From contig JAGPGB010000001.1 of NCBI GenBank assembly GCA_018056215.1, positions 1 to 41,126 on the forward strand: 41,126 nucleotides of DNA, written 5' to 3'. The stretch is from Bacteroidales bacterium (GTDB lineage Bacteria > Bacteroidota > Bacteroidia > Bacteroidales > DTU049). The notes under the pieces were generated by a model. That model had not been told where the DNA came from. It worked only from the letters and a program-made list of their open reading frames with translations, and searched no databases. This document shows positions 3,388 to 41,126 of the stretch, one piece after another. Every line of letters starts with the position of its first letter. Position 1 is the first letter of the stretch. The position numbers and the translations under genes were made by a program.

Positions 3388-3798
3388 ATGAAAAAAATAA
3401 CATTAAGTTTATTAATTGTAATTTGTCAGTTATTTTTATTTGCTCAAGAATTTGACCCTAGGTTAGAGGATCATTTTGGCAAAGATAAATTGATTTATTG
3501 GCAAAAAAATTATCCAGATAGCCTAGGATATTATGAATTTATAATAGATAATGCTTTTCTAATAATGGATGAAAATGTAGCTATTACTAATCTCGGACAA
3601 AAAGAAGTCAATGAAATAGAAATACCGAATTTCGATGAAGCCATTAAAAATCATAAGCTAATAAATATTTTTTCTCTAGGTATAGAAATATTACCAGACA
3701 TGAACCAATATTTTAAAATCAAAAATGAACCATATTATTTGTATGTAAAATCAAGCAATTATTTATGGGAAAAATATTTAGCAGGTAAAAAAAATTAA
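3388..3798 (+). CDS. Secreted hypothetical protein (136 aa), cassette copy 1
   Basis: N-terminal signal peptide (MKKITLSLLIVICQLFLFAQ). It is a paralog of 6519..6929, with 84 of 116 mature residues identical by hand count. Only 4 nt separate it from the downstream large gene. Confidence 0.8.
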   Translation: MKKITLSLLIVICQLFLFAQEFDPRLEDHFGKDKLIYWQKNYPDSLGYYEFIIDNAFLIMDENVAITNLGQKEVNEIEIPNFDEAIKNHKLINIFSLGIEILPDMNQYFKIKNEPYYLYVKSSNYLWEKYLAGKKN

Positions 3799-3802
3799 TT
3801 CT

Positions 3803-6430: not shown

Positions 6431-6518
6431 ACTTCCATTTTATGATAATTTTTTTTAAATTTATTACATTATTTAAAAAATTATATTTAAATTTGCATTA
6501 AATATTAAATTATTAAAT

Positions 6519-6929
6519 ATGAAAAAATTATTATTATTTTTACTTATAAATATGATTACTCTTTTATCATATTCTCAACAATTTGATTCTAGATTAGAGA
6601 AACATTTTGGTAAAGATAAATTGATATTTTGGCAAAAAAATTATCCAGATAGTTTAGGATATTACCAATTTGTCCTAGATAATGCTGTATTGATAATGGA
6701 TGAGTCTGTTGTGAAACAAAGATTAGGTGGAGAGCAAGTAAGCGAGATAGAAATCACTAATTTCGATGAAGTTATTAAAAATCATAAACTTTTAGATATT
6801 TTTTCACTAGGCATAGAGATAAAACCCGATACTTATCAATATATTAAAGTAAAAAATGAACCATATTATTTATATGTAAAACCTGGCAGATATTTATGGA
6901 ATAAATATCAAGCTGGTAAACAAAATTAA
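6519..6929 (+). CDS. Secreted hypothetical protein (136 aa), cassette copy 2
   Basis: It has a signal peptide and is a paralog of 3388..3798. A TAAATTTG -7-like box lies at 6488-6495. Confidence 0.8.
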   Translation: MKKLLLFLLINMITLLSYSQQFDSRLEKHFGKDKLIFWQKNYPDSLGYYQFVLDNAVLIMDESVVKQRLGGEQVSEIEITNFDEVIKNHKLLDIFSLGIEIKPDTYQYIKVKNEPYYLYVKPGRYLWNKYQAGKQN

Positions 6930-6935
6930 TACATT

Positions 6936-9542
6936 ATGAAAAGATTAAAATTATTTATATTATTTTCATTAATAATATCAAATACAATAGTTTTTGGACA
7001 AAACCAAACTATTAATTTAGATGCTAGTACACATAATACACAAAAAGCAGCTTGTGGATTTTGGTTTTATGACGATGGAGGTTCTGGTGGCAATTATTCT
7101 AATAATCAGGATAGATGGATAACTTTTTATTCTACTGATCCCACATATACTCACATAAAAATAGAATTCGCATCTATGAGTTTAGCTGCTGGTGATACAT
7201 TGATTATTTATGATGGACCTAATACTAGCTCACCAGTGTTAATTAAATATTCACAAGCTAATCCATTAACACCTGCAAATTCTGCTGTTCAAGCTACTAT
7301 AAATAATCCTGGTGGCAGGCTAACAGTTAGATTCAAAACTGATGGAGCTGGTAATGCTGCTGGATGGAATTCTGCTATTGGTTGTATTAAAATGTGCCAA
7401 AGGATTACACCAGTTTTAGATAGTATATTAACTAATCCACTACCCACACCTGATTATTATATTAATTTATGTGCATATGATACCCTTACATTAGCTGTTA
7501 AAACAGATAATTCTACTTTCCCAGATAACCACATCATTTATAATCAAACACCAGCAAATACTACATTTGCATGGAGTATGGGTGATGGTACTACTTTATA
7601 CGGTCCTGCTGTTAGCTATCACTATAATATTCCCTCTGGATATAACTTATCTCTTACTATTACAGATTCTCTTGGGTGCTCAAATACAATAGCCTTTGGA
7701 TATAAAGTACGCATAAGTAATAATCCTATAACTGGTATAAATCCAGTACCTGATTTATGTGAAGGTGATTCAGTAATAGTAACAGGTGGTATAGGAAGTG
7801 GTAATGTGGTCGAGGTCACCCCATTTAGTAATGTCATAACAGCACAAGGAGTATATGATGTATTAACTTTTATCCCTGATGGACCTAGTTGTGCTACTCA
7901 GTGCTATGGTACACCAGTTACTTTTGATCAATTTCCTCCCGGCTCTACAGTACAGCAGACTAGTGATATTGAATCTATCTGTATATCTATAGAACATTCA
8001 TTCGCAGGGGATTTATCTTTTAAAATTATCTGTCCAAACAATCAAAGTGTTGTCTTAGATTCATACGATAATAGTGGTGGTAATTATTTAGGAGAGGCTT
8101 ATGATTATTCATCAGGATGTGATGCTAATAATCCATCAAATATTCCAGGTACACCATGGCTTTACTGTTGGTCAGAAGTTTCTAATTATACTTATCAAGG
8201 TACATTAAATTATGTCGATGGCGCAGGACCATCACCTATTCCAGCTACTGACACAATAAATCACACTAATTATTTAGATCCTGAAAATCCTTTTACTGGT
8301 CTCATAGGATGTCCTCTAAATGGTACTTGGAATATAGAAATTTGTGATTTATGGGGTGCTGATAATGGTTGGGTCTTTGAGTGGATGCTCACTTTGTCAA
8401 GTAATTCGGGGGTAGCTGGCTGGCAATATTCTGTTGCTATTGATTCTATTGATTGGGATGGACAAAGTTTCTACCCAATTAATGATAGCACTGCTTTTTT
8501 TAACCCTGACAGTAGTGGCGTTTATAATACATATATAACAGTATATGATGAATATGGGTGTACTTATACTTCTACAGATCCACTTACTATTGAAGTTATT
8601 GCTAATCCAGAAATAGATTTAGGAGAAGATACTACCCTTTGCGAAGGTATGCCTTTAATTTTAAATGCTGGTGGTGGCTATGATGAATATTTATGGAATA
8701 ATAATATGACTGATTCTTTATTATTTGTAGAAATGGATGGTATGTATTCAGTTACAGCAACAAATTATAATAGCACCCATACATTAGGATGCTCTGATAG
8801 TGATACTATGATAGTAACATTTATTCCTAATGCAATGGTAGATTTAGGACCAGATCAATGCGTAACTGAAGGTCCAGTAAATTTAGATGCTACATATTTG
8901 CCAGGATTTTCCTATCAATGGTCTACAGGTGAAAACTCACCAGTAATAGATCTGACTCAACCTGGTGTTTATGATATTAGCGTAAATGTTTTTTATGCTA
9001 CTCCAGACATGTGTTCAGCAAAAGATACAGTACATATAAAAATCATACCAGAACCAATACCACCATTACCTGATACATTATTTATGTGTGCTCACCAAGC
9101 TAGAATTTTAAATGCCGAACAACCAAATTACAATAATTTATATAATTTCATTTGGTCAACAGGTAACTCATCTACTATGCAAACACTATCTGGTATGTCT
9201 CCTGGTATATATGTTATTCAAGTAAAAATTATTGGTTGCGACACACTAACTGATAGTACAAAAGTAACTGTAGAATCTTGCGATATAACTATTCCAAATG
9301 TATTCACACCAAATGGAGATGGCATTAATGATCAATTTCAAATTACTAATTTAGAATATTACCCTAATAGTGAAATTAAGATTTATAATCGTTGGGGAAA
9401 GAAAATCTATGAAAGTGAAAACTACCAAGGAAACTGGAATGGAGATGTTACTGAAGGAACATATTTCTATATTCTAAGGCTAAATTATGGTAATGGTACC
9501 CTTAAGGAATTTCACGGAACAATTACTGTGTTGAAAAATTGA
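6936..9542 (+). CDS. Large T9SS-sorted surface protein (CUB-like + PKD + P-domain + type-B sorting domain), copy 2
   Basis: It is colinear with 3803..6430. The C-terminus FTPNGDGINDQFQI...YNRWGKKIYE...WNG...GTYFYIL is a canonical gliding-motility-associated C-terminal domain. Confidence 0.85.
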   Translation: MKRLKLFILFSLIISNTIVFGQNQTINLDASTHNTQKAACGFWFYDDGGSGGNYSNNQDRWITFYSTDPTYTHIKIEFASMSLAAGDTLIIYDGPNTSSPVLIKYSQANPLTPANSAVQATINNPGGRLTVRFKTDGAGNAAGWNSAIGCIKMCQRITPVLDSILTNPLPTPDYYINLCAYDTLTLAVKTDNSTFPDNHIIYNQTPANTTFAWSMGDGTTLYGPAVSYHYNIPSGYNLSLTITDSLGCSNTIAFGYKVRISNNPITGINPVPDLCEGDSVIVTGGIGSGNVVEVTPFSNVITAQGVYDVLTFIPDGPSCATQCYGTPVTFDQFPPGSTVQQTSDIESICISIEHSFAGDLSFKIICPNNQSVVLDSYDNSGGNYLGEAYDYSSGCDANNPSNIPGTPWLYCWSEVSNYTYQGTLNYVDGAGPSPIPATDTINHTNYLDPENPFTGLIGCPLNGTWNIEICDLWGADNGWVFEWMLTLSSNSGVAGWQYSVAIDSIDWDGQSFYPINDSTAFFNPDSSGVYNTYITVYDEYGCTYTSTDPLTIEVIANPEIDLGEDTTLCEGMPLILNAGGGYDEYLWNNNMTDSLLFVEMDGMYSVTATNYNSTHTLGCSDSDTMIVTFIPNAMVDLGPDQCVTEGPVNLDATYLPGFSYQWSTGENSPVIDLTQPGVYDISVNVFYATPDMCSAKDTVHIKIIPEPIPPLPDTLFMCAHQARILNAEQPNYNNLYNFIWSTGNSSTMQTLSGMSPGIYVIQVKIIGCDTLTDSTKVTVESCDITIPNVFTPNGDGINDQFQITNLEYYPNSEIKIYNRWGKKIYESENYQGNWNGDVTEGTYFYILRLNYGNGTLKEFHGTITVLKN

Positions 9543-9570
9543 TTTACTTTTAAAAAATAAAAATATTAAC

Positions 9571-9600
9571 AAAAGAGGCAGCAAGTTGCTGCCTCTTTTT
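9571..9600. terminator. Bidirectional rho-independent terminator between convergent genes
   Basis: AAAA-GAGGCAGC-AAGTT-GCTGCCTC-TTTTT is a GC-rich 8-bp stem flanked by an A run and a T run. It sits between the stop at 9542 (+) and the stop at 9599 (-). Confidence 0.8.
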
Positions 9601-10246
9601 ATTTCATTTTTACATCATTTTTATAATAATTTTTTTCTATAGTATCCCCATCTATAGATAAAACAATTTCTATCCCGTTTTTTTGATTGTTCTCAAAGTA
9701 AGTAATAGACTGTATATTATCAGAATATGGATAAAAAGTCGTGAGCACACCATTACCATTATCAAATTGACCGATACCTACGAGAAATCCATTTTCATTA
9801 TAATAATGCCATTTGCCATCAAACTTTCCCTTTTTATAAAATCCTTCTTTTTTCACCATATTATTAGAATAGTATTCTCTGTAAATCCCATTCAAAGTAT
9901 CATTCTCATAGGTTAATTCTTCTATTATATTACCCAGAATGTCATAATAAATAGCAGTACCATTTTTTTTATTATTTTCATATTTAATAATAGATTTTAT
10001 ACTACCATTAGGATAATATTCTTTATAATCGCCATTTAGCATGTTTTGAGAATAATTCATTTCAGCAATTTTATTTCCAGCTTTATCATATTGATATGCT
10101 GCACCATGCTTTAATCCTTTTTTTATAGAATATTCCGCTGCTAAAGATCCATCAGGATAATACAATTTTTCTACTCGCTGACAACCAGATAAAAGTATCA
10201 AACTAAAAAATAAGAGAAATAAATTTATTTTCATATTATTTTTCAT
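9599..10246 (-). CDS. MORN-repeat-variant (YwqK-like) lipoprotein
   Basis: It has repeated YYPNGxxxxxxxYxNxxxxG units and a lipobox, LLSGC. The ORF-track start at 10258 is a TTG. In-frame ATGs at 10246 and 10234 are more plausible, so the exact start is uncertain. Confidence 0.75.
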   Translation of the reverse strand: MKNNMKINLFLLFFSLILLSGCQRVEKLYYPDGSLAAEYSIKKGLKHGAAYQYDKAGNKIAEMNYSQNMLNGDYKEYYPNGSIKSIIKYENNKKNGTAIYYDILGNIIEELTYENDTLNGIYREYYSNNMVKKEGFYKKGKFDGKWHYYNENGFLVGIGQFDNGNGVLTTFYPYSDNIQSITYFENNQKNGIEIVLSIDGDTIEKNYYKNDVKMK

Positions 10247-10418
10247 ATTATTTTTCAAATTTAAGAAATTTTTCTAATAGTATACAGGGTTTTAATAACA
10301 ATTAATCAATGATAATATGAAAAGTGAAATCAATTTTCTTACAAATGTAATTTGATTTACATTAAAAAATTTACATCTATTGAAATATTAGCTTTTATCG
10401 TAGCTTTTTCTAAGGTGA

Positions 10419-11453
10419 TTAATGAATTTCACTCATTTCTCCACGCAATGGTGTTTGTAGTAATTCTTTAATTTTGTTTTTATCTTTGATATTACCTAAT
10501 AAAAACATTGATTTAGTAATAGCAGACTCAGTAGTAATATCATTACCAGAAATGACTCCGATATTTTCTAAACTAAGAGATGTTTCATATCTGCCCAGCT
10601 CTACTCTACCAGCTTTGCATTGAGTGATATTTAGAATTATTTTACCATGTTGTATTGCTGTTTTTATCGTTTGTAAAAAATCATCATATGTTGGGGCATT
10701 TCCTGATCCGAAAGTTTCTAAAATGATAATTTTTAAATCATTATCACACAATATGTCGCTCATATTTTTTATAGGCATACCTGGATAGATTTTTACTAAG
10801 CCTACAGAATTGTCTAAATTTTTATATACCTTTAGTTGTTTATTATTAGGTTTATTGATATACTCATGATAATATCTGATATGTACTCCCACTTGAGCTA
10901 ATACAGGGTAGTTGCCACTATAGAAAGCATCGAAATTTTCTGCATTAAACTTTGAGGTTCTATTACCTCTAAATAGTTTATTTTCGAAATATATCGCTAC
11001 TTCTGGAACTATGGGCTTATCATTATCGTATGCAGAAGCAATTTCTAAAGAAGCTATCAAGTTTTCTCTGCCATCAGTCCTTATCATATCCAAAGGCAAT
11101 TGAGAGCCTGTCATGATAATTGGTTTATTTAGATTTTCTAATAAAAAACTGAGAGCAGAGGCAGTGTATGCCATAGTATCTGTACCATGCAAGATAACAA
11201 AGCCATCAAATAAATTATAATTTTTTTCAATAATTTCAGCTAATTCTATCCAGTGTCTTGGCAAAATATTAGAAGAGTCTATAGGAGTCTCAAAGGAAAC
11301 ATGAGCGATATCTATGGGCATACGATCTAAATAAGAAATATAAGTATTTAACTGATCAAAATTAATAGGAACCAAGGTTTTTAGCTTTTTATCATATACC
11401 ATTCCTATAGTACCTCCTGTATATATTAACAATACTTTTCTTTTATTATTCAT
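10419..11453 (-). CDS. ansA: L-asparaginase, type I (cytoplasmic)
   Basis: The N-terminal active-site motif is VLLIYTGGTIGM, followed by HGTDTM, at the full length typical of AnsA. Confidence 0.85.
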   Translation of the reverse strand: MNNKRKVLLIYTGGTIGMVYDKKLKTLVPINFDQLNTYISYLDRMPIDIAHVSFETPIDSSNILPRHWIELAEIIEKNYNLFDGFVILHGTDTMAYTASALSFLLENLNKPIIMTGSQLPLDMIRTDGRENLIASLEIASAYDNDKPIVPEVAIYFENKLFRGNRTSKFNAENFDAFYSGNYPVLAQVGVHIRYYHEYINKPNNKQLKVYKNLDNSVGLVKIYPGMPIKNMSDILCDNDLKIIILETFGSGNAPTYDDFLQTIKTAIQHGKIILNITQCKAGRVELGRYETSLSLENIGVISGNDITTESAITKSMFLLGNIKDKNKIKELLQTPLRGEMSEIH

Positions 11454-11467
11454 GATTTAATATTTTT

Positions 11468-12250
11468 TTACAAAGAAAATAATTTTTTAGCATTTGCTGT
11501 AGTTTTAGCAGATACTATGTCTACATTCACATTTAATATATCGGCAATTTTATTAGCTATGATAGGAATATATGAGCTTTCATTCCTTTTCCCTCTATAT
11601 GGAACAGGAGTCAAATAGGGTGCATCAGTTTCTAAAACTAAATTTTCTAAACCAATTTTTTTAATAGTTTCACTCAAATTGCTATTTTTAAAAGTTACCA
11701 CACCACCTATTCCTAAATAAAAACCTCGCTCAATTATCTGCATAGCCTCATCTATAGAGCCAGTGAAGCAATGAAAAACTCCACGTAGATTATTAGCAAA
11801 ATCATTTAAAATATCTAATATCACATTTAATGAATTACGTTGATGTATACATACAGGCAAATTATAATCTATAGACCACTGTAATTGCTGGTGGAAAGCT
11901 ATTTTTTGCTCTACTAAAAAAGTATCATCCCAATATAAATCTATTCCTATTTCACCTATTCCTACATAATATTTATGATTATGTTTTAATTCATTTTCTA
12001 TAAAAATTAGCTCCTCATGATAATTTTCATTCACACTCTCTGGATGAACTCCTATCATCATACGTTGTAAGGCTGTATTCATATTATAGCATTGCCACAT
12101 AGCATCGTAGTTTTTACTATCTATAGCAGGCAAAATAATAGTATTTACACTATTTTGGATAGCTCTATCTAATACTTCTGATCTATCATTATCGAAATCT
12201 TCTAAATAAAGATGAGAATGTGTATCTATGTATACTAAAGTTTCTCCCAT
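11468..12250 (-). CDS. TatD-family metal-dependent hydrolase/DNase
   Basis: It has YIDTHSHL at the N-terminus, plus GEIGIDLYW, HCFTG and LETDAPYL motifs. It overlaps the upstream gene end by 16 nt. Confidence 0.85.
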   Translation of the reverse strand: MGETLVYIDTHSHLYLEDFDNDRSEVLDRAIQNSVNTIILPAIDSKNYDAMWQCYNMNTALQRMMIGVHPESVNENYHEELIFIENELKHNHKYYVGIGEIGIDLYWDDTFLVEQKIAFHQQLQWSIDYNLPVCIHQRNSLNVILDILNDFANNLRGVFHCFTGSIDEAMQIIERGFYLGIGGVVTFKNSNLSETIKKIGLENLVLETDAPYLTPVPYRGKRNESSYIPIIANKIADILNVNVDIVSAKTTANAKKLFSL

Positions 12251-15207
12251 AAATAATGATATACTTTATTATCTATATATAATTGTAAAATATAAATACC
12301 AGGTTGTAGTTCGCTTATTGGTATTACGATATAATCACCTACTTGAGTCATCTGAGCATTAATTTTATTACCTAATAAATCAAAAATTTCGATACTATTA
12401 ATATTATTATCAAATTTAATATTAATAAAATCGGTTGCTGGATTAGGATAAATATTTACTTGTGGGTTAAAATCATTTATATTATTTGGATTAATATAAA
12501 CAAAACCATCACTAAAAGTATTAATGGATAGACCAGCATTATTGATAGATTTGACTGTCAGATAATAATAATTGTAATTTATTAAACTAGTAGGATAAAA
12601 GGAATAGAAATTATTTATACCTACATTAGTCCATGGTAAAGTATTATCGTACCCGGGCACAGTACCTATGCACACTTTATAATTACTTATCCCACTATTA
12701 GGGTCATTAGCTTGTCCCCATTGTGCAGACATTGGTAGCATAAAAATAGTATCATAATCTTGGCCGATACCATCCCAGACAAATGAAGGAGGAAGAGGGG
12801 TGGTGTAATCTACAAAAACATCAAGCATAGCTAAATTAGATAGGTTATCTGCACTATCTTGTATTATACTTTTTATTTTACCTGCTGGTGAAGAGGGATT
12901 AATGCTTTCATATCTCAAATCTTTTGTGTTATTATTACCTACCCCAATAATATAGGCAGTATTAGGATAACGGGATCTATATATTTTTATTTGGTTAAAT
13001 TGTGCAATACAATTGCCAGTCCTAAAAGACACAAAACGACCATTAGTATTATAAGGTTGGCTATCTATCCATTTCCCTTTAAATAAATTGTTTACATAAA
13101 CCCATATGCCACCATCTATTCTATCATATATTACTTTTATATTATACCATTGGTTTAAATTTATTGTACAGGGGACCTCATAAGTTTTTGTAAAAGTATT
13201 ATTAGTTACTTTATAAAACTCTAAATTGTTAGTTTCTAACCTAAACCAAATAAAGTAACCATTACCTCTATTTTCTAATACCGAATCTGAAGAGAAAAAA
13301 TAAAGTCCAAAACGTTTATTTGTTACTGTATTTCCTAGTATTTTAGCTTCAAATTCATACAAATATCTATTTGAAAGTTCTTGATTTAAAAATGTATTTA
13401 TATGTGTATTATTAATGGTAGAATCTGTCTGCATTAAATAACCATTTTGTTGTATCCAGTTACCAGAGATTATATTCCATCGATTGTTTATAGAAGGAGC
13501 ATCAAAATTATCCGCTAAAAAGCCTCTACTCTCATTTGCTCCCCAATCTACGCCATCATATTCTATCACTTGGTAATAAGCTTTTTGTATACCACTCATG
13601 TCATCTGAATCATGAAAGGTAACTATGAAATCTTGTGTTTGCCAATGAGCAATAGAATCTATGAAAGTAATCGGCCTAACAGTATCACTAGGAGCTTGTT
13701 CACATTGATAAACTAGAGAAAAACCTTGATTATTAGTTGATGCATTAGAATGAAATTGTAATGTGAAAGCACCAGAGTTAGCTATCAAAGTACCTGGATT
13801 ATTAGATCCTGTAAAAGATCCTATCAAGGGTGCAGCAGTAGTGCTACCATTATATAATCTGAGATAATCATTACTGTTTTCTAAATTAAATTGACTAAAA
13901 TTAATTGTTATTGATTGACTATTAGGAGGTGCGATAGTATATGTATAATCTTCATTATCATAATAATTTCTAAGAGGTCCTCCCATATCGAATAAACTAT
14001 CAATGCAAGGATTCACCGAACAAGTAGTAAAATGTTCACTTATATTATCCCAATAATCTGTATATCCATCATCATTACCTAATGCCCATATGCCCATACC
14101 AGCAAGATTTCTTTGATTTATTAAATCCATTCGTCTTCCCATACTATATTTATCATCTATGAAGCATTGTCGCCATTCTGTTCCATTATTAAAAACATAA
14201 GCAGGCGTAAATGATGCTCTGTCCCAGACTTTATTTGACTGAGTATAATAACCTGTAGAGTTGTCTCTAACAAACTTGTAAGTACGTGAAACACAATTAG
14301 GCGGATTATTAACAGATGAAGGAATAGTATTAGATACTGTACCATATTCTCTACCATAATAAGGCAATGCAAGAATTAATTTATTGGCAGGACAGCCTTT
14401 ATTTAAATAATAATTAACTGATTTAGCAAGAGTATAATTATATGAAGTTACGAAGTTATATAAAGGATCTGTAGGACCTGCAGTAGTACTGCCACCATAA
14501 TAATAATCATATCCCATAATTATGAAATAATCCACTTTATCCTTCATAGCATTAATATCAAATATATCACTCCATTCTACTGCATTAATAGCTATTGTAA
14601 CCTCAGAACCTGGTATACGTGTATGAAAAGTATCTGCTAGCTCATTCATAAAATTAGTAAATGCAGTTTTGTGTGTAGAGCTCATACCTTCGAAATCTAT
14701 ATTCACACCATGCGCTCCTCTATTTATTACAAGTGTTACTATCTGATGCATAAAATTTCTCTGAGCAGTGATATTATTAAAAAAAGTAGTATGATTACTA
14801 AACAGTGTAGCACACAAGTGGACTTTAACACCTGCATTTAGTGCATCTGTAACAGACTGTATAGTGCTAAAACTGTGTGTAGACACGTAATTACCTGTAT
14901 TATAATCTACCTCATATGCGAAATAAGCAAAATGACTTAAAAGATTCCAATCATAATTTGCTTGTAAACCATTCTGCCAATAAGGATGCCATCCATAAAC
15001 TACTTTTGTTAAAGAACAATTACTTTTCGGTGTATGCTGAATATTAGCTCTATGAGTAGAATTATATTCTTGATAATCCTCTGCAGATAAGCCAGTAGAG
15101 TTATAATAATTTAACTCCTCCTCGTGAATTGATACCTGGCTGAATGATTCATTATTAATAGTAATAATCAAAATAATACCTAAAATCGAAAGAATATGTT
15201 TTTTCAT
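12235..15207 (-). CDS. Glycoside hydrolase family 18 (YaaH/chitinase-like) + CUB-like domain + type-A T9SS C-terminal sorting domain
   Basis: It has a signal peptide and the GH18 catalytic block HGVNIDFEG with the D-x-E retained. The CUB-like segment is YLRLYNGSTTAAPLIGSFTG...FSLVYQC. The C-terminus is Por_Secre_tail-like (NIYPNPATDFINIKF...GIYILQLYIDNKV). Confidence 0.8.
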   Translation of the reverse strand: MKKHILSILGIILIITINNESFSQVSIHEEELNYYNSTGLSAEDYQEYNSTHRANIQHTPKSNCSLTKVVYGWHPYWQNGLQANYDWNLLSHFAYFAYEVDYNTGNYVSTHSFSTIQSVTDALNAGVKVHLCATLFSNHTTFFNNITAQRNFMHQIVTLVINRGAHGVNIDFEGMSSTHKTAFTNFMNELADTFHTRIPGSEVTIAINAVEWSDIFDINAMKDKVDYFIIMGYDYYYGGSTTAGPTDPLYNFVTSYNYTLAKSVNYYLNKGCPANKLILALPYYGREYGTVSNTIPSSVNNPPNCVSRTYKFVRDNSTGYYTQSNKVWDRASFTPAYVFNNGTEWRQCFIDDKYSMGRRMDLINQRNLAGMGIWALGNDDGYTDYWDNISEHFTTCSVNPCIDSLFDMGGPLRNYYDNEDYTYTIAPPNSQSITINFSQFNLENSNDYLRLYNGSTTAAPLIGSFTGSNNPGTLIANSGAFTLQFHSNASTNNQGFSLVYQCEQAPSDTVRPITFIDSIAHWQTQDFIVTFHDSDDMSGIQKAYYQVIEYDGVDWGANESRGFLADNFDAPSINNRWNIISGNWIQQNGYLMQTDSTINNTHINTFLNQELSNRYLYEFEAKILGNTVTNKRFGLYFFSSDSVLENRGNGYFIWFRLETNNLEFYKVTNNTFTKTYEVPCTINLNQWYNIKVIYDRIDGGIWVYVNNLFKGKWIDSQPYNTNGRFVSFRTGNCIAQFNQIKIYRSRYPNTAYIIGVGNNNTKDLRYESINPSSPAGKIKSIIQDSADNLSNLAMLDVFVDYTTPLPPSFVWDGIGQDYDTIFMLPMSAQWGQANDPNSGISNYKVCIGTVPGYDNTLPWTNVGINNFYSFYPTSLINYNYYYLTVKSINNAGLSINTFSDGFVYINPNNINDFNPQVNIYPNPATDFINIKFDNNINSIEIFDLLGNKINAQMTQVGDYIVIPISELQPGIYILQLYIDNKVYHYLWEKL

Positions 15208-32942: not shown

Positions 32943-33326
32943 TTACTTTTGTTTTTGTTTTGGTCGTTTAGCACCATATTTACTTCTACCTTGTTTTCTT
33001 TTTTCTACGCCAGCAGTGTCTAATGCTCCACGTATGATATGATAACGTACACCTGGTAAATCTTTTACACGACCACCTCTTACTAAAACGATGCTATGTT
33101 CTTGAAGGTTATGACCTTCTCCGGGAATATATGCTATCACTTCATATCCATTTGTTAACCTTACTTTAGCTACCTTTCTCAAAGCTGAATTAGGTTTCTT
33201 AGGTGTAGTTGTGTAAACACGAGTACAAACACCTCTTCGTTGAGGACAATTAGCAAGAGCTGGACTCTTACTAGTCCTTCTCTTTGCTTTCCTCCCTTTT
33301 CTTATCAACTGTTGTATTGTTGGCAT
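32943..33326 (-). CDS. rpsL: 30S ribosomal protein S12
   Basis: [12 protein letters not shown]...[16 protein letters not shown]. Confidence 0.95.
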
Positions 33327-33653: not shown

Positions 33654-33818
33654 ATGAAAAAATTATTTTTAATTTCAATTTTGATTGTCATAACAATGAC
33701 AATGTATGGGCAAAAAGCAGCCCGACACACAAGCAAACGCTTCGCAAAAGTCAAAGAGCCATTTTTTCCTTCGCACGAAAAGAGTAAATTTACAAATACA
33801 AACTTTAAAATTAAATAG
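33654..33818 (+). CDS. Small ORF (54 aa): N-terminal hydrophobic signal/anchor helix plus a Lys/Arg-rich tail; not in the ORF track
   Basis: My hand translation gives MKKLFLISILIVITMTMYGQKAARHTSKRFAKVKEPFFPSHEKSKFTNTNFKIK*. The stop TAG at 33816-33818 is 2 nt before the ATG of the SPFH gene. Confidence 0.5.
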   Translation: MKKLFLISILIVITMTMYGQKAARHTSKRFAKVKEPFFPSHEKSKFTNTNFKIK

Positions 33819-33820
33819 TT

Positions 33821-35071
33821 ATGGCAATAATTGATCTAGTCCGTTGGGCACCTCAAGGAAATCAAACCATATATGCCTATAGGTTTCCTGAGACAAATCT
33901 TAGCACATACACACAGTTGATTGTGCAAGAATCACAAGAGGCAATTTTATTTTCAAAAGGTCAAATTGTAGGTAAATTTGGACCCGGTAAACATACACTT
34001 AATACGGAAAACCTGCCAATATTAAGAAGTTTATACGGACTCCCTTTTGGTGGTAAAAATCCATTTACAGCAGAAGTTTGGTTTGTAAACAAACTACAAC
34101 CTTATAATATTGATTGGTCAATTGACCGAATGGATATTCATGATGCTGATTACAATACAGGTATTCCGCTTGTTGCTAATGGTAGATATGGTTTAAAAAT
34201 TACGGACGCAGAAAGATTTTTGATAAAAATTGTTGGGACAAAAAATTCATTTGACCAAAATGATCTGACTGACCAGTTTTTTGGTGAATTTTCAACAAAA
34301 ACAAAGTCTACTGTTTTGCAATTCATGATTAATAATAGAATTGGATTAAAACAAATTTCCGCCCATTTAGACAGCATATCTGAACATTTAAAAACGGTAA
34401 TGCTGCCTTTTTGGGAAAATCTTGGTTTGGAACTTACGAAGTTCTATGTTACAAGTATAGAAGTTGATAGTTCAACCGAAGTTGGAAAACGTGTGTTAGA
34501 TGCAATTTCTCGCCAAAGTGCACAATCTATTGGTGGTTACACTTGGCAACAAGAACAAGCGTTTGGTGTAGCTAACAATGCAATAGACGGTTTTTCAAAC
34601 AGTAATTCAGGAATATTAGGAGCTGTTATTGCAACAAATATGATGGGAGGTTTAGGAGGTGCAGGCGGTGTTATGCAGCCACAATACAATCAACCAACAT
34701 TTGGCGGTACGAATCAGAATCAACAGGGCAATAATGTTCAACCAGTTAATCAAGTAAAAGAGGTTTTCTGTTCAAATTGTTCAAAGAAATTTCCTAGTAC
34801 ACATCGTTTTTGCCCTCATTGTGGAGACCCTTATGATGCTTGTCCTAAATGTGGAACGGATAACGATAAAAATGCAAAACGATGTGTAAGTTGTGGCACT
34901 CCACTTCAAACTGAAATGTCATTATGTACTAATTGTAACACACCTCTTGCTCCCGGTAGTTCATTTTGTGGAAATTGTGGTCAACAGCAAGCAGAAAATA
35001 AATGTACAAGATGTGGAACTGCATTAAATCCAACAATAAAGTTCTGTCCTAAATGTGGTCAAAAACGCTAA
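33821..35071 (+). CDS. SPFH/band-7 protein of the YdjI / COG4260 (virion-core-protein-like) type, with a G/Q/N-rich linker and four C-terminal zinc ribbons
   Basis: The N-terminal ~235 aa follow the YdjI-type pattern (IDLVRW...IVQESQEAILFSKGQIVG...AEVWFVNK...IPLVANGRYGLKITD). The linker runs aa ~240-315. Eight CxxC motifs lie at C317 to C412 (nt 34769-35056), paired with exactly 10 residues inside each ribbon. Confidence 0.75.
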   Translation: MAIIDLVRWAPQGNQTIYAYRFPETNLSTYTQLIVQESQEAILFSKGQIVGKFGPGKHTLNTENLPILRSLYGLPFGGKNPFTAEVWFVNKLQPYNIDWSIDRMDIHDADYNTGIPLVANGRYGLKITDAERFLIKIVGTKNSFDQNDLTDQFFGEFSTKTKSTVLQFMINNRIGLKQISAHLDSISEHLKTVMLPFWENLGLELTKFYVTSIEVDSSTEVGKRVLDAISRQSAQSIGGYTWQQEQAFGVANNAIDGFSNSNSGILGAVIATNMMGGLGGAGGVMQPQYNQPTFGGTNQNQQGNNVQPVNQVKEVFCSNCSKKFPSTHRFCPHCGDPYDACPKCGTDNDKNAKRCVSCGTPLQTEMSLCTNCNTPLAPGSSFCGNCGQQQAENKCTRCGTALNPTIKFCPKCGQKR

Positions 35072-35087
35072 CTAAAAAATTAAAGTT

Positions 35088-35798
35088 ATGAATGCTAAAA
35101 AAATATTTTCGTTATTGCTTGCACTCTTTGGAGAAGCACTGATTATTTTCTGTTTTTTACATTTTGGCAAAAATGTCCAGACAGAAATATTAACACTTAA
35201 TATTATTGTATCAACAATAATTTATTGTCTTGTATTTGTAGATGTAATTTTTCCATGGGTTAACCTAAAAGATAAATCACAGAAGCAAATTGGTTCTATT
35301 GGTTTAAGATGGTTTTTTACATTTTTCTATTTGATACTCGCTATAGGGGTTATGATATTTTTCAATACTGTAAAACCCATTCATTATACGAATCAAATTA
35401 TTATTCATGGTATTCTATTCTTTCTGCTATTGCTTGGTCTATTTATGGCTTTTTCATCATCCGACAAGGTAAGTGAAGTTTATTTTGAAGAAAAACAAAA
35501 CAGAGATAGGATTGATGAAATGAAGAAGGTTACAAAAGAACTTCAATTAAAATTAGATGCCATGAATAATATTCCAATAGAAATCATTAATCGTATTAAT
35601 GAACTACAGGAAAATTTACGATATCTATCGCCCAGCAATAATAGTGATGCATTGGTTCTTGAAAGCAAATTTGTTGAAGAAATTAGAATGTTAAATAATT
35701 GCTTTTCAGATAATCCATTAAACATTGAAATTGTCATCAGCAACATTAAAAATTGCGAAAGGACATACAAAGAACGCAAACAAATTTTCTCAAATTAA
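35088..35798 (+). CDS. Integral membrane protein (about four TM helices) with a ~110-aa helical/coiled-coil C-terminal domain; unknown family
   Basis: Hydrophobic segments lie near aa 6-26, 34-55, 71-92 and 104-124. The C-terminus is charged and heptad-like (NRDRIDEMKKVTKELQLKLDAMNN...). Confidence 0.7.
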   Translation: MNAKKIFSLLLALFGEALIIFCFLHFGKNVQTEILTLNIIVSTIIYCLVFVDVIFPWVNLKDKSQKQIGSIGLRWFFTFFYLILAIGVMIFFNTVKPIHYTNQIIIHGILFFLLLLGLFMAFSSSDKVSEVYFEEKQNRDRIDEMKKVTKELQLKLDAMNNIPIEIINRINELQENLRYLSPSNNSDALVLESKFVEEIRMLNNCFSDNPLNIEIVISNIKNCERTYKERKQIFSN

Positions 35799-35822
35799 TA
35801 TAAATCCAGTAAATCAAATCGT

Positions 35823-37994
35823 ATGAAAGGTAAAATTTTTCCGGAATCGAGTAATATCTACCAAGATCAGGCGAAGATATTATTCAACTATTACCAGTCA
35901 ATGGCTGAAAAAATAGTACAAGAAGAGGAACGCATTGAAAAAGAAATTGCGAAACTCGAAGAAGAAAAAAAGATGATAGAAGATATTCTTTCTTCTTTTT
36001 GGAACAGAATTAAATTATGGTTTCAAGGCAAACTAAAGAAAACGAGATTACAGGTTGAAACCCTAAACACAAGAATCGCTGAATTTCAGAAAATGCACAA
36101 AGAAATTTTCAGGGATTACAAAGTAAGTAAATTGGGCGTTGCTTATGTTCCAATTGCCGACCAAATTAAGTATGAAAATAAAAGCTTTATTGTTGATCAT
36201 ACGGGAATGGTTGAGGAATCAGAAGTTAAATTGCAATTGTCAAAACAAAACGACTTACTTATTCAAACAATTTCAGAGTTAGAAAAACTTTCGGGTGAAG
36301 CACCTATTGTTGAAAGTTCAAACGAAATTGAAGAAATTGAGACAGAACAGTATTCCAAATCAATGCAACAACTAAATCAACATGATTATTTTGGGAAACT
36401 TGAACGTTCGTTGAGAACAATTTCATATTGTATGGATGATTTAGATGTAACCTCGGTTCAATTACCACTAGTTGCGAATGAAAGTTCATATCTTAACTTT
36501 TTAAAGGAGTTTGCGACCAATGAAATTCCTGAAAATGCACCAATTTTTAAAGCATTTGACACACAAAAATACAATGAGCAGATTTCAAAATTTCAGGAAT
36601 TAAATAAACTAAAAGATTCTTTATCAAGACATACTGCACAGTTTGAAGATGTATTGAAAGGACTAATGATTACAATGGCAAATTCCGTTCAAGCAATATC
36701 CGCATTGAAAATTGCTTCAACAGATAAAATTGTTTTTGAATCAAATAAGGTACTTTATAAAATACTTAAATCTCCTTATAACCATTACTCTCCTGTTTTA
36801 GAGGCATCAGAGATTGAACGAATCAGAAATGAAAGTTTTAATTATAGTGAAGCGGTTTCTGATTATGTTCCATTCCAACTAAAAGATAGTTCAAAAGTCC
36901 GTTTCAATTTAGTTTCTGGTATGTGGACAGCCGAAGATGGTAGTACAACCAATTTCCCATTTGGCGTTCATCAAATCCATGAAGAAATTGTTGCTCCTAT
37001 CGTTCAAAACCTGATGAATGAAACAAGAATTGAACGTTTGAAAATATATAATCATATCAAAGACCAAAAAATAAGTTACCTTAACAAATGGCATCAGGAT
37101 ACGGAAGATTTTTATGGAAGAAACCGTGCAGAAAGTGCCGATTTGATAAATTTAATGAGAGCCAGTTTAAGAGATTATGTTGCAGCATACAATACATTAA
37201 CTTCTTTGAAGAAAACTGAGGATAGTATGGCACAATCTGGAGGGTCTTTAGATTCGACAGTTGTAACAGCAACTGAAAACTCAGCAGAAGTATTTGCAGC
37301 CTTTGAACTTCAATCAAAAGAATTCCAAAATGTTCTGCTTGACTTTGAGAACTACATGGAGCGTTTGAAAGAAGACATTGATATGAAAGCACAAAAGTTT
37401 GAGCACATTGATTATTACGATGCATTGCTACGGGATGGAATATCAAAAGAAATTGCTGTTGCTGCGGATGAAGTTCATGATTTTGACGCAAGAAGAAAAC
37501 CTCTTATTACAGTAAATCCATTATTTGCAAAAACTTCAGATTTACCTCCAACTCCGGATGTGGAAGATATTACCTTCGAGCACATTTCTTTGAATCTACC
37601 GAATATTGCAAAAAATACATTAAGAGAACTTGAAGATGATTTGGTAATTGAGCAACCTATTTCAGAAGAAAATGATGAAATTGAAAGCACGAATATTGAA
37701 TCTGATATTGAGAATAATGTTGAATCAGATGATAATATTATAGAAAATCAAGATGCTGACGATAATTCTGAATCAGAAGAAAAAGAAGATAACAATGATG
37801 CATCTGATGAAGATGAAGAAGATTTTTCTGATGAAGATGAAAACGATGATTCTGAAAGTGATAATGAAGATAGCGAAGATGAAGAAGATGAAGAAGATTT
37901 TTCTGATGAAGATGAAAACGATGATTCTGAAAGTGATAATGAAGATAGCGAAGATGAAGAAGATGAAGAAGATGAAGAAAATAAAAAGAATTAA
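35823..37994 (+). CDS. Large (723 aa) coiled-coil-rich hypothetical protein with a ~120-aa poly-Asp/Glu C-terminal tail; unknown family
   Basis: N-terminal coiled coil (EKIVQEEERIEKEIAKLEEEKKMIEDIL). I saw no Walker A or other catalytic motif on reading. The tail from about aa 600 is dominated by D/E/S/N and includes a perfect 25-aa duplication. Confidence 0.7.
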   Translation: MKGKIFPESSNIYQDQAKILFNYYQSMAEKIVQEEERIEKEIAKLEEEKKMIEDILSSFWNRIKLWFQGKLKKTRLQVETLNTRIAEFQKMHKEIFRDYKVSKLGVAYVPIADQIKYENKSFIVDHTGMVEESEVKLQLSKQNDLLIQTISELEKLSGEAPIVESSNEIEEIETEQYSKSMQQLNQHDYFGKLERSLRTISYCMDDLDVTSVQLPLVANESSYLNFLKEFATNEIPENAPIFKAFDTQKYNEQISKFQELNKLKDSLSRHTAQFEDVLKGLMITMANSVQAISALKIASTDKIVFESNKVLYKILKSPYNHYSPVLEASEIERIRNESFNYSEAVSDYVPFQLKDSSKVRFNLVSGMWTAEDGSTTNFPFGVHQIHEEIVAPIVQNLMNETRIERLKIYNHIKDQKISYLNKWHQDTEDFYGRNRAESADLINLMRASLRDYVAAYNTLTSLKKTEDSMAQSGGSLDSTVVTATENSAEVFAAFELQSKEFQNVLLDFENYMERLKEDIDMKAQKFEHIDYYDALLRDGISKEIAVAADEVHDFDARRKPLITVNPLFAKTSDLPPTPDVEDITFEHISLNLPNIAKNTLRELEDDLVIEQPISEENDEIESTNIESDIENNVESDDNIIENQDADDNSESEEKEDNNDASDEDEEDFSDEDENDDSESDNEDSEDEEDEEDFSDEDENDDSESDNEDSEDEEDEEDEENKKN
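37812..37973 (+). repeat. Perfect 75-bp tandem duplication (2 copies plus a 12-nt partial third) inside the acidic tail
   Basis: 37812-37886 and 37887-37961 are identical base for base (gatgaagaagatttttctgatgaagatgaaaacgatgattctgaaagtgataatgaagatagcgaagatgaagaa). 37962-37973 repeats the first 12 nt. Confidence 0.95.
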
Positions 37995-38014
37995 TCATTT
38001 AAACTGAAAGAATT

Positions 38015-38926
38015 ATGGCAACATTTAACTATACAGTAGATACAAAGCCAATGGCAGATGAAATGCGTAGTGTTTCACGACATGTGAACGCCACTACCGA
38101 TGCCGTTGTAGCTATGCAAACAGCAGTCATAATTGCTGAAGAAAAAGCAGCAGACCATGTTTGCAATAATGTAAACAAAGGATTTTATTCTTTGATTCGC
38201 TCCCAAATCTCGCAGAAAATGGCAAAATTACAAAGCGAGGTTGATTCTCATCTTATGCAATTGGTTCAGCAAAAAAATGCTTTACTAAGCATTAAAAACC
38301 GAATGCAAAAGGATTACAACATGATAGCCAGCAGGTACATCAAACTTTTTAACGGGTTAAACTCAAATTTGAAACAGAGAGTTTTTGAACTTGACAAGCC
38401 AACTATTGATTTTGCAGTTAAAGAGGTTGACAAAGTTTCTAACAGAACAAAATATTTAACAGCAACTATCCCGATAGCACAGTTGGAGTCTTTAGCAGCG
38501 AGCCAAAAAATTGTTGCATCAAATGTTAAGTATCGTGGTCTTAATGTAATCAAGTCAATGCGTAGTTTTCTTTTTGAAATGAATACGCAAAAGAAACTTA
38601 CAGACCAGATATTAATAAATGATGGCAGATATACCGAAACAGCAACAGTTTATATTCCAATTGTAATATGTGAATGCAATAGAGATAAAACTGGTACCGG
38701 AATTGAAATTTCTGTTTCTGATGTTGAGTTGGATAATATTTCAAAGTCTGCGATTAAGAATACTGCATTCGCAGAACTTAATCAAATTGAATGGCAAGCC
38801 AAAACTTCACCCAATACAGAAGTTAAAAGCGAGTTCAGTAAATTAGTATCATCTTCCTCAAAGTCGCAACGAGTAAAGGATATGGCTACGAAGTTGTTTC
38901 AGTCTAATAATTATCAAACCATTTAA
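38015..38926 (+). CDS. Hypothetical alpha-helical protein (303 aa), paralog A of an unknown family
   Basis: It shares a ~126-aa core with the next gene. The shared motifs are GF--LIRSQISQK and SRYIK-F--LN--L--R-FELDKPT. Confidence 0.7.
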   Translation: MATFNYTVDTKPMADEMRSVSRHVNATTDAVVAMQTAVIIAEEKAADHVCNNVNKGFYSLIRSQISQKMAKLQSEVDSHLMQLVQQKNALLSIKNRMQKDYNMIASRYIKLFNGLNSNLKQRVFELDKPTIDFAVKEVDKVSNRTKYLTATIPIAQLESLAASQKIVASNVKYRGLNVIKSMRSFLFEMNTQKKLTDQILINDGRYTETATVYIPIVICECNRDKTGTGIEISVSDVELDNISKSAIKNTAFAELNQIEWQAKTSPNTEVKSEFSKLVSSSSKSQRVKDMATKLFQSNNYQTI

Positions 38927-38937
38927 ATGTTAAAGAT

Positions 38938-40005
38938 ATGAGTTATTCAAGGAAATATCATGAAACAATAACAGTTAGAGGGTCAAAGACCGTAACTGTA
39001 TCATATCCAAAATCTGAAAGTGGTGGAAGTAAATCTGTTACTGTGGATTATGTTGAAAATGTACCTGTAGACGTTAATATCCATGTTGATACAGATCCAT
39101 TTGATGATAGTGTTGAAAGTTGCAATACAAATGTAAATTTGCTTACCGGTGCTGTGGTTGCAACGGAAGTAGCACAAATTGCTTCTATTGACAAAAATTC
39201 AAAGAAAGTAGCAAATACTATTATCGATGGCTTTTTTGGTTATATACGCTCAGAAATAAGCCAACAAATTGCTGAATTAACTCAGGGTATAGATTCTCAA
39301 TTGATGCACCTTAGAGAATTATCGAAAGCTGTAGTTGATAAGAAACGACAAATGGAAGGCGATTTTTTGCGAATTTCAAGCAGATACATAAAAACTTTTG
39401 ACGATCTGAATAATGAATTATCTAACCGTATTTTTGAACTCGATAAACCCACATTTGTTTTCAAAAAAGAATTAGATAATCAAAGTATCAGAACTACCAA
39501 CAATGATTTAGTTAACACTGTTGCAATTTTTGGCAAAGAGGGTAGCGAATTACATTCAAAAATAAGTGCCTCAATTGCAAAAAAACGTGCTTTAGATACA
39601 TTGAATAAAGCTAAAGTATTTTTATGGCAGCAGAAAAAGTTAAACAATACCATACAGCAAAGCATGTTGAATGAAAGCACGGAATCTCCGCAATATTCAC
39701 CTGTGTGTTTTATAGAAACAAAAGCGGATAAAAATCAAATATCTAAAGGATTACATACACCTTCATTCGTTTCTGCTTTGCAGGAAAACCAAACAAAAAA
39801 TGAGCTAATTGAGCAATTCAATGAATCAACAAATTCATGGAGTACAATAACAAAAGATTACACAGAAAATCTTAAATTGTACTTTAATTCTGAATTAAAC
39901 AAATCATACACAACTGCCGACCAACATTCGGTAAGGGTAAAGGAAATGATTCAAAAGATTGCCAATCTGGGTTCTATTCAAACAATAAGTGTTCAAAATC
40001 TTTAA
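38938..40005 (+). CDS. Hypothetical alpha-helical protein (355 aa), paralog B, with an extra beta-strand-like N-terminal ~45 aa
   Basis: Core aa 50-175 aligns without gaps to aa 8-133 of the 303-aa protein. By hand count 56 of 126 positions are identical. Confidence 0.7.
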   Translation: MSYSRKYHETITVRGSKTVTVSYPKSESGGSKSVTVDYVENVPVDVNIHVDTDPFDDSVESCNTNVNLLTGAVVATEVAQIASIDKNSKKVANTIIDGFFGYIRSEISQQIAELTQGIDSQLMHLRELSKAVVDKKRQMEGDFLRISSRYIKTFDDLNNELSNRIFELDKPTFVFKKELDNQSIRTTNNDLVNTVAIFGKEGSELHSKISASIAKKRALDTLNKAKVFLWQQKKLNNTIQQSMLNESTESPQYSPVCFIETKADKNQISKGLHTPSFVSALQENQTKNELIEQFNESTNSWSTITKDYTENLKLYFNSELNKSYTTADQHSVRVKEMIQKIANLGSIQTISVQNL

Positions 40006-40017
40006 AAAATAATAACA

Positions 40018-40992
40018 ATGAAAGAGTTAAAAGAAATTCGATTCAATGAAACCAATATCCAACTTAAGGACAATTTGGTTAAAGGCTCTATACTTCCTGA
40101 AAAAATTGCTGAGTTAAATAGAACTATCACAATACAGGGTAGTACCGTTATTGAGGGTCCTGTATATGCACATAAGTTAGAGATTCAACAAGGTGATTCA
40201 GAAATACATGGAGCAGTATTTACACAGCTTGAACTGTATGTAAATAGTGAAGCAAAAGGTAATGTTACCTTCAAAAAAAGTGTAGGTTCAGCCAATTCAA
40301 TTGTTTCAAGGGCTCAAAACTGCAATATTATGTTTCATAGTGACATAAATGCAAAGAGCGTAACTTTGTATAATGCTTTTGTTGCTGGTAGCATATATGC
40401 AGATGAAATAATACTTGAGAACAGTGTTGTAATTGGTGGCGTTTTTGCAACTCAAACAATTGATTTAACTAATTCAATTGTTGGCACATTTAACACTCCA
40501 TCTATTAAAGCGGCTCAAATGGTAAGTTTGCTTTTACCAAGTGCTTTTTCTATTGAAAAAATACTTGTTGTGCCAGGGACAAAATTCTACAATCTAAGCT
40601 TGGCTGATTTAGGCTCATTATACAAAGGGTTGCCACAGTCAATAAATTCTGGTAGAATTGAAATGAACATTGATGCTGATGAAGTTAAAACTACCTTAAC
40701 GAATGAAGAAACCCAAAAAACATTAAGAAGCTACACAGTCGTTGGAAAAGTTTTAGCAGCAGATTTGTTGGATATGGATAAATTTCAAAATCACTTTTTA
40801 TTGACTGCCGCAAGCTTAGGTACTCAATTACTGAAAACCTATGACTTGGGAGTCGATGCCAAAGGACAACCAGCAACTTTGACAATGGAGAAAATTAGAA
40901 ACTTCTTCTTTGATATTTTACATGGTAAAATTGAAGTTCAAGAAATTAACGGAAACTTTGATATTTCACAAATTACTGGAAAATTTAATTAA
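40018..40992 (+). CDS. Bactofilin-like (polymer-forming cytoskeletal, beta-helical repeat) protein with a non-repeat C-terminal domain
   Basis: aa ~35-165 show short periodic beta-helix-like repeats rich in G/V/I/A (TIQGSTVIEGPVYAHKLEIQQGDSEIHGAVFTQLELYVNSEAKGNVTFKKSVGS...VAGSIYADEIILENSVVIGGVFATQTIDLTNSIVG). The assignment is by eye only. Confidence 0.5.
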   Translation: MKELKEIRFNETNIQLKDNLVKGSILPEKIAELNRTITIQGSTVIEGPVYAHKLEIQQGDSEIHGAVFTQLELYVNSEAKGNVTFKKSVGSANSIVSRAQNCNIMFHSDINAKSVTLYNAFVAGSIYADEIILENSVVIGGVFATQTIDLTNSIVGTFNTPSIKAAQMVSLLLPSAFSIEKILVVPGTKFYNLSLADLGSLYKGLPQSINSGRIEMNIDADEVKTTLTNEETQKTLRSYTVVGKVLAADLLDMDKFQNHFLLTAASLGTQLLKTYDLGVDAKGQPATLTMEKIRNFFFDILHGKIEVQEINGNFDISQITGKFN

Positions 40993-40995
40993 GCA

Positions 40996-41126
40996 ATGCC
41001 GGACGTAAAGCAAGCACATTTGCAAACCGCAGAATGCCAACTCACAAACCAAAGTTTGCAAAAGAGCTTGCTTTGCCCACCCGGAAAAACAAAAAATCTT
41101 CCCTCTCTAAAAAATAAAACTTTGCC
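40996..41126 (+). CDS. Possible 5' end of an eighth operon gene (open frame runs off the window); could instead be non-coding structured sequence
   Basis: The ATG at 40996 is 3 nt after the preceding stop. The frame MPDVKQAHLQTAECQLTNQSLQKSLLCPPGKTKNLPSLKNKTL... has no stop up to nt 41126. The segment also contains a long imperfect inverted repeat. Confidence 0.25.
   Translation, partial: MPDVKQAHLQTAECQLTNQSLQKSLLCPPGKTKNLPSLKNKTL

Follow-up and report, generated by a model that had tools for sequence, protein, structure and literature searches.

A pair of paralogous long-helix proteins in a mobile six-gene operon of Bacteroidota

Two adjacent genes near the right end of a 41,126-nucleotide stretch of DNA from a Bacteroidales bacterium (GenBank assembly GCA_018056215.1, contig JAGPGB010000001.1; the whole stretch is called the window) raise the question of what their products do together, and of what larger system they belong to. 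The genes, termed here A and B, are the fourth and fifth of a six-gene operon and lie on the + strand at 38015-38926 (303 amino acids, aa) and 38938-40005 (355 aa), with a spacer of 11 nt between the two open reading frames (ORFs). The two form an ancient pair of paralogs whose family has no detectable known relatives, and the operon that encodes them is a horizontally mobile accessory module, restricted to Bacteroidota as far as sampled.

The relation between the two proteins extends further than was first thought. A preliminary description of the locus, made from the sequence alone, aligned aa 8-133 of A with aa 50-175 of B without gaps and counted 56 identities in the 126 positions. This count was reproduced exactly, against a chance level of 7.8 ± 2.7 identities and a maximum of 19 in 2000 shuffles, and the two conserved blocks quoted there, GF--IRS-ISQ--A-L and SRYIK-F--LN--L--R-FELDKPT, were both found. 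The description also held that A and B diverge completely outside this core, which is wrong because the homology detected by BLASTP spans all of A: residues 5-303 of A align with 47-350 of B (35% identity over 312 columns, E 4e-41), through to the C-termini, and the motifs QKKL, Y-P, RVK-M and QTI are common to both proteins beyond the core. The N-terminal extension noticed in B is real. It comprises ~45 residues, is rich in Ser, Thr, Val and Gly and is kept in B-type homologs, in which the motif SYPxSxxGG is conserved; the β-strand character also attributed to it is a prediction from sequence only.

A search of 1.84 billion cluster representatives with a profile of A and B retrieved 632 proteins at E<=1e-3, of which 362 also passed E<=1e-30, and this places the size of the family at ~630 clusters at 50% identity. 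Among the best 150 of the 632 representatives, 59 are of the A type (median 307 aa) and 91 of the B type (median 344 aa). That the family is an unrecognised one, as first proposed, is borne out by every collection searched. No Pfam family reaches its curated cut-off for A, B or 136 representatives, and the scan of the resulting 138 family members gave scattered coiled-coil noise, such as Baculo_PEP_C in 18 of the 138. Searches with A and B gave no match above threshold in NCBIfam, PADLOC or PHROGs and nothing significant in sequence and profile searches of the PDB. Source annotations of family members read either "hypothetical" or carry plainly spurious names.

The helical nature of the core, initially read from the sequence, agrees with a confident AlphaFold2 model of A built from the alignment of the 138 sequences. 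The mean predicted local distance difference test (pLDDT) is 89.1 and the predicted template modelling score (pTM) is 0.37, a combination typical of an elongated protein. The predicted model shows the architecture of a helical stalk: a continuous helix of 116 residues (11-126) is followed by return helices at 128-147 and 155-199 and by a small α/β C-terminal domain (residues 216-302), and one subdomain of the model contains a β-hairpin. As modelled, the 116-residue helix cannot be stable on its own. Because it is solitary, is ~170 Å long and carries a conserved stretch of small residues, LTGAVVATEAAQ, together with an invariant Gly-Phe, the modelled helix would be best explained by packing against a partner helix.

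The fold itself gives no lead to a known family. When the A model was compared by Foldseek with 350,542 PDB chains, the lowest E was 2.9, and for BFVD it was 0.11, neither of them significant. The preliminary description had suggested, by analogy with the psp-ydj genes of Bacillus, that the pair occupies the slot of a membrane-remodelling protein like PspA or ESCRT-III. Comparison lent this suggestion no support: hhalign of the family profile with E. coli PspA gave a probability of 0.4% (E 0.16), no chain of PspA, Vipp1 or ESCRT-III is in the Foldseek PDB list for the A model, and neither A, B nor any of the 138 family members has a PspA_IM30 or Snf7 match in Pfam. The Foldseek PDB list likewise contains no ClyA, Hbl, Nhe or BAR structure. 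Identities of the PspA/ESCRT-III, BAR and ClyA types are therefore unsupported for A and B, since the Foldseek comparison, the PDB searches and the comparison with PspA are all empty. A hydropathy scan of A and B detected no hydrophobic or transmembrane (TM) segment, signal peptide or hydrophobic β-tongue.

The remaining members of the operon provide the context in which the pair has to be understood. All six genes are on the + strand, the intergenic gaps across the operon are 11-24 nt, and there is no terminator-like site on that strand inside the operon. Gene 1 (33821-35071, 416 aa) encodes a soluble SPFH protein with Pfam matches to Band_7_1 (E 1.6e-36) and DZR (E 2.6e-25), in which the Band_7_1 domain (aa 20-218) is followed by a Gly/Gln-rich linker and four to five C-terminal zinc ribbons, and in which the hydropathy scan finds no hydrophobic segment. 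Gene 2 (35088-35798, 236 aa) encodes a membrane protein with four TM helices predicted from hydropathy, at about 6-24, 37-55, 77-95 and 104-122, and a predicted cytoplasmic tail of ~110 aa; of the six proteins it is conserved least, with a mean pairwise identity of 0.40. Gene 3 (35823-37994, 723 aa) encodes ~600 very highly conserved residues and then a variable poly-acidic tail, which arises partly from a 75-bp tandem repeat (37805-37973, 2.3 copies, 98% matching); the protein contains 167 Asp and Glu residues in all. In most gene 3 homologs a hydrophobic, TM-like stretch is present at aa ~56-78; in the window lineage its place is taken by a short amphipathic segment rich in Trp and Phe (aa ~55-80). 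In some homologs the acidic tail bears a zinc ribbon or a PF00542 match. Homologs of gene 3 number 2,824. Comparison of the A/B profile with gene 3 by hhalign shows no relation.

Gene 6 (40018-40992, 324 aa) follows B and encodes a bactofilin-like protein, with N-terminal repeats that by eye are consistent with a β-helix and a C-terminal domain without assignment. Its match to the Pfam bactofilin family PF04519 (E 9e-4, 19.9 bits) is below the cut-off of 27.9 bits and covers aa 12-59 only. The best PDB profile match is the bactofilin BacA (2n3d) at E 1.3, and one source names a member of the gene 6 cluster CcmA/bactofilin. With a mean pairwise identity of 0.75 across orders, gene 6 is the most conserved member of the operon. 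Apart from the SPFH and zinc-ribbon domains of gene 1 and this weak bactofilin match, scans of the six proteins with Pfam, NCBIfam, PADLOC and PHROG are empty, those of the gene 2 and gene 3 proteins included. PDB searches with gene 3 or gene 6 gave nothing significant, and no TPM, PspA or related domain is detected in genes 2-6 by Pfam or NCBIfam.

The association of A with B can be followed across genomes. Two peptide patterns were used to scan 185,579 species genomes, and the taxonomic range given here rests on this pattern-limited scan, with labels that may be unreliable for metagenome-assembled genomes. The A gene is present in all 52 GTDB species loci found, and B and the other four genes occur in the same order wherever the contig reaches. 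The same gene order is found in eight further contigs and in four loci of three divergent representatives. All 52 species loci are from Bacteroidota, among them Alistipes, Capnocytophaga, Prevotella, Flavobacteriales, Chitinophagales, Lentimicrobium and Labilibaculum. The suggestion of an ancient duplication kept as a dedicated pair is upheld by these loci: A and B types adjoin in every locus that is complete enough, the divergent ones included, and no homolog among the loci examined occurs singly in an unrelated context. The six proteins also diverge in step: correlations between their pairwise-identity matrices are 0.83-0.95, with the highest value for A and B (r = 0.948), and this tight co-divergence fits a physical partnership of the two proteins.

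Inheritance of the operon is not tied to one place in the chromosome. Its site varies, and from species to species within one genus the flanks are mostly unrelated. An identical gene 6 protein occurs in 194 indexed blocks of the collection, and the eight places listed for it include contexts of type I restriction-modification (R-M) genes, of NotI with a methylase, of an N6_N4 methylase with UvrD and of an ABC-type ATPase, three of the eight having R-M genes alongside. A census of the species loci, with 139 nearest neighbours, shows four integrases, scattered R-M, PDC, KwaA (Kiwa) and mads matches, and housekeeping genes. The A/B family is absent from phage and plasmid collections searched by tblastn and from the viral contigs of IMG/VR.

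A vehicle for this mobility can be delimited in the lineage of the window. DNA homology between differently flanked loci runs from window position ~33720 to past the window end. It begins with the 3' ~100 bp of a conserved non-coding leader (33720-33820, + strand) and continues beyond gene 6 into a conserved non-coding trailer of ~215-230 bp (40996-41126, + strand), which is interrupted by the window end. The corresponding unit in other loci consists of a ~290-bp leader, the operon and a ~230-bp trailer; it measures 7.6-7.7 kb, carries GTTACAAGCnnGCC at its two ends as inverted copies and contains no recombinase. It is found at 5486-13209 of locus L002, 5585-13211 of L003, 52-7746 of L054, 3508-11202 of both L055 and L056, and 61-7755 of L059, and the flanking DNA changes between loci precisely at the unit ends. 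The window holds only 33720-41126 of the unit, without the left ~190 bp of the leader and the terminal repeat GTTACAAGCAAGCC that belongs to it, and with the right end beyond the window; no stretch of the window matches the pattern of this repeat better than chance. In the other loci the trailer ends in GGCCAGCTTGTAAC, an inverted copy of the left terminal repeat. A further copy, on a 3.28-Mb contig of GCA_900198705.1, has a run of N, either masked or unresolved, in its leader (L053, 3533-3632), because of which its left end is unreadable.

Neither leader nor trailer belongs to a known RNA family, given that the window, L003 and L054 yielded no Rfam match at the gathering thresholds. Two ORFs overlie them, one of 54 aa at 33654-33818 in the window and one of 115-121 aa over the trailer in other loci; both are probably not genes, because they lie over the conserved non-coding leader and trailer. 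The "proteins" they would encode are of low complexity and shift in frame or end between loci.

The same frame carries other cargos. A metagenome scan for the trailer end yielded 66 loci, about 24 of them with the six-gene operon. The remaining loci have a different cargo inside a leader of ~170-190 bp, ~90% identical, and a trailer of ~215 bp. One alternative cargo is an operon for ZorA/ZorB-like proteins, a tubulin-like protein of 1,562 aa, an aspartyl protease and an SNase nuclease; another is an operon for Hsp70, GrpE, a zinc-ribbon/LysM protein and a small protein that by eye is J-domain-like. Such units lie at L075 410-12764 (as stored) and at L076 3298-12102 and L109 2956-11735, the latter two re-oriented to place the trailer on the + strand and thus with coordinates reversed relative to the stored loci; others are in L065, L085, L105 and L117. 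R-M genes often adjoin the other-cargo units. The unit with the six-gene operon also frequently has R-M genes and integron-integrase-like recombinases as neighbours.

The boundaries of the units have a recurrent layout. A conserved, imperfect hairpin of ~125 bp usually lies 3' of the trailer, for example in L068, L085, L092 and L126, and has the sequence ATGCGGTATATTTTATTGCCGAG...CGGCAACAAAAACATACCGCTGTCCGTTA between the complementary cores GCTTGTAAC and GTTACnAnCAAGC. When a second unit follows, these cores close the hairpin in an attC-like layout. The minimal junction of two tandem units, at L003 5567-5598, reads GCTTGTAAC-ATGC-GTTACAAGC. Tyrosine recombinases are found outside the left end of the unit in L002 (4311-5393, + strand) and L076 (12652-14028, - strand), and score 196 and 221 bits against the TIGR02249 "integron integrase" model (cut-off 265) and 210 and 212 bits against NF040815 (XerA/integron-integrase; cut-off 220). 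No recombinase is encoded in the window.

From paralogy, co-divergence, predicted structure and gene content we infer a physical pairing of A with B, one complex of all six proteins, and a biological role for it. A and B would be obligate partners, most likely joined through their exposed ~170-Å helices as a heterodimer or hetero-oligomer, and would be the stalk or lattice subunits in a complex of six proteins on the inner side of the cytoplasmic membrane. The membrane anchor may be provided by the 4-TM protein of gene 2 and, in most homologs, by the hydrophobic segment of the gene 3 protein, while the YdjI-like SPFH and zinc-ribbon protein of gene 1 would scaffold the complex and the bactofilin-like β-helix protein of gene 6 may polymerise. 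Of the roles considered, the most likely one for the operon is in conflict or defence, for example in detecting phage and other invaders at the membrane or in stopping them there. The claim that A and B are paired subunits of one membrane-associated complex appears about evenly balanced, and a defence role for the operon is possible, with the balance tilting somewhat away from it. The most specific proposal is a previously unrecognised, membrane-associated Bacteroidota system against phages or other mobile genetic elements, in which a heteromeric coiled-coil lattice of A and B, an SPFH scaffold and a bactofilin-like polymer would make up a sensing or blocking assembly beneath the membrane, and which would spread on an integron-like platform, with attC-like hairpins and IntI/Xer-like recombinases, that also carries ZorAB-like and Hsp70 cargos. 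It is put forward tentatively and is rather unlikely to hold in full.

Several observations weigh against the proposed complex and its defence role. With regard to the complex, the A-B heteromer is a prediction, the bactofilin assignment of gene 6 is sub-threshold, and the AlphaFold model of gene 3 is unusable (pLDDT 42.9), the alignment behind it being shallow, with sequences that share 69-96% identity with the protein of the window. With regard to defence, PADLOC v2 gives zero matches at E<=1 for all six proteins, none of the six has a recognisable enzymatic effector domain, nuclease included, and conservation is unusually high for a defence system, with gene 6 at a mean of 75% identity across orders. 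The defence signal in the neighbourhoods is modest, and many neighbours are housekeeping genes. Lastly, the inverted-repeat frame occurs in only five of the 52 species loci, those of the lineage nearest to that of the window. As a vehicle the frame is therefore recent and the operon older, and because of this limited occurrence the argument from sibling cargos is limited to the window lineage.

The main alternative, which goes back to the preliminary description, is that the operon is an envelope-stress or membrane-maintenance module like PspA-YdjGHI of B. subtilis, in which the gene 1 protein would recruit A and B, and these, as functional, non-homologous substitutes for PspA, would coat damaged membrane or stabilise it. 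Gene 1 has the YdjI-type combination of Band_7_1 and zinc ribbon, and beside it stand genes for a membrane protein and for long-helix proteins, which recalls the dependence of YdjI on membrane partners and its recruitment of a helical, polymer-forming protein (PMC8581546). However, A and B have no sequence or fold relation to PspA or ESCRT-III, domains of the TPM or YdjG/H-like kind were not found with Pfam, and a patchy, mobile distribution within genera, often beside R-M genes or integrases, is atypical for a core stress system. This explanation is accordingly considered unlikely, although it survives better than the other two.

In a second alternative the bactofilin-like protein and the coiled coils of A and B form a cytoskeletal or organelle scaffold, a filament or lattice for cell shape, gliding or a compartment. 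The weakly bactofilin-like repeats of gene 6, the very long helices of A and the very strong conservation, which is typical of structural assemblies, would all suit such a scaffold. Core morphogenetic systems are normally inherited vertically, whereas this operon was found in only 52 species loci among the 185,579 species genomes of the two-pattern scan, changes its chromosomal position and shares a mobile frame with ZorAB-like and Hsp70 operons; a scaffold of this kind is thus quite improbable. It is very improbable indeed that A and B are effectors, as a two-part membrane-inserting toxin of the ClyA/Hbl type or a BAR-like membrane-deforming one that is released or activated by other operon genes: although the two paralogs lie side by side, measure 300-355 aa and have long helices and a β-hairpin-containing subdomain, and phmmer gives a weak match to the BAR domain of BIN1, that match is not significant (E 0.2), and the Foldseek list and the hydropathy scan described above offer neither a toxin or BAR structure nor a hydrophobic segment or signal peptide.

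Should the operon encode a machine for defence or for guarding the envelope, no earlier one would combine an SPFH scaffold with a bactofilin-like polymer and a dedicated coiled-coil pair, and SPFH proteins would gain a new functional setting. As it stands, five of the six proteins of a strictly conserved and widely transferred operon, the A/B pair among them, lack any relative whose function is known, and for A the same is true of the fold. Literature searches on SPFH proteins combined with bactofilin, defence or zinc ribbon turned up no account of the operon, and a preprint on serine recombinases as defence markers makes no mention of it. Cultured carriers exist, namely Capnocytophaga granulosa ATCC 51502, Capnocytophaga sp. 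F0517 and Labilibaculum filiforme 59.16B, and direct testing is therefore possible.

Two features of the window outside the operon were also recorded. The operon directly adjoins the divergently oriented rpsL-rpsG-fusA ribosomal protein cluster (32943-33326, - strand, and upstream), which runs on the - strand across ~15-33 kb of the window. This adjacency recurs only in the near-identical contigs L057, L058 and L060 and in no other species, and a functional meaning was rejected because it is limited to the window lineage. Further to the left, a two-gene unit is duplicated in tandem on the + strand (3388-6430 and 6519-9542); each copy encodes a 136-aa protein and then a multi-domain protein of ~870 aa, both with a signal-peptide-like N-terminus, and the two copies are clearly paralogous by eye.

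Among known systems, pspA-ydjGHI is the closest. It shares with the operon a soluble Band_7_1 SPFH protein with C-terminal zinc ribbons, the architecture of B. subtilis YdjI (PMC11237479), as well as a membrane partner and helical, oligomer-forming proteins (PMC8581546; PMC11237479). Nevertheless, the sole part in common is the YdjI-type gene 1, three genes upstream of A. The operon has no PspA/ESCRT-III homolog and no partners of the YdjG (zinc ribbon-NTF2-TM) or YdjH (TPM) type, four of its six proteins have no counterpart, and it is mobile and, in the sample, found in Bacteroidota only. The likeness to bactofilins is confined to gene 6, which has β-helix-like repeats and a sub-threshold match to their family but differs in its large C-terminal domain and in a score below the Pfam cut-off. 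Membrane-anchored defence of the Zorya type is similar in having a multi-gene operon with a polytopic membrane protein, long coiled-coil elements and R-M neighbours, and in one lineage the operon is on the leader/trailer frame that also carries a ZorA/ZorB-like and SNase operon; in contrast to Zorya, the six proteins give no match to ZorA-D or to any PADLOC model, and there is no recognisable effector.

The carrier frame, finally, invites comparison with integron gene cassettes, and integrons are reported to be rare in Bacteroidetes by IntegronFinder 2.0 (bioRxiv 10.1101/2022.02.28.482270). The units differ from such cassettes in that their cores deviate from the RYYYAAC/GTTRRRY consensus and the adjoining recombinases are below the curated cut-offs. 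They are also large, at 7.6-12 kb, with ~190-bp leaders and ~215-bp trailers common to different cargos, and the window copy is without its left end. The likeness to integron cassettes lies in units of the window lineage that each hold one operon and are bounded by complementary core-like repeats, GCTTGTAAC and GTTACAAGC, around an imperfect hairpin of ~125 bp; such units stand in tandem and adjoin recombinases whose best models, at these sub-threshold scores, are integron integrases. The frame thus hints at an integron-like cassette system in Bacteroidota that carries very large cargos.

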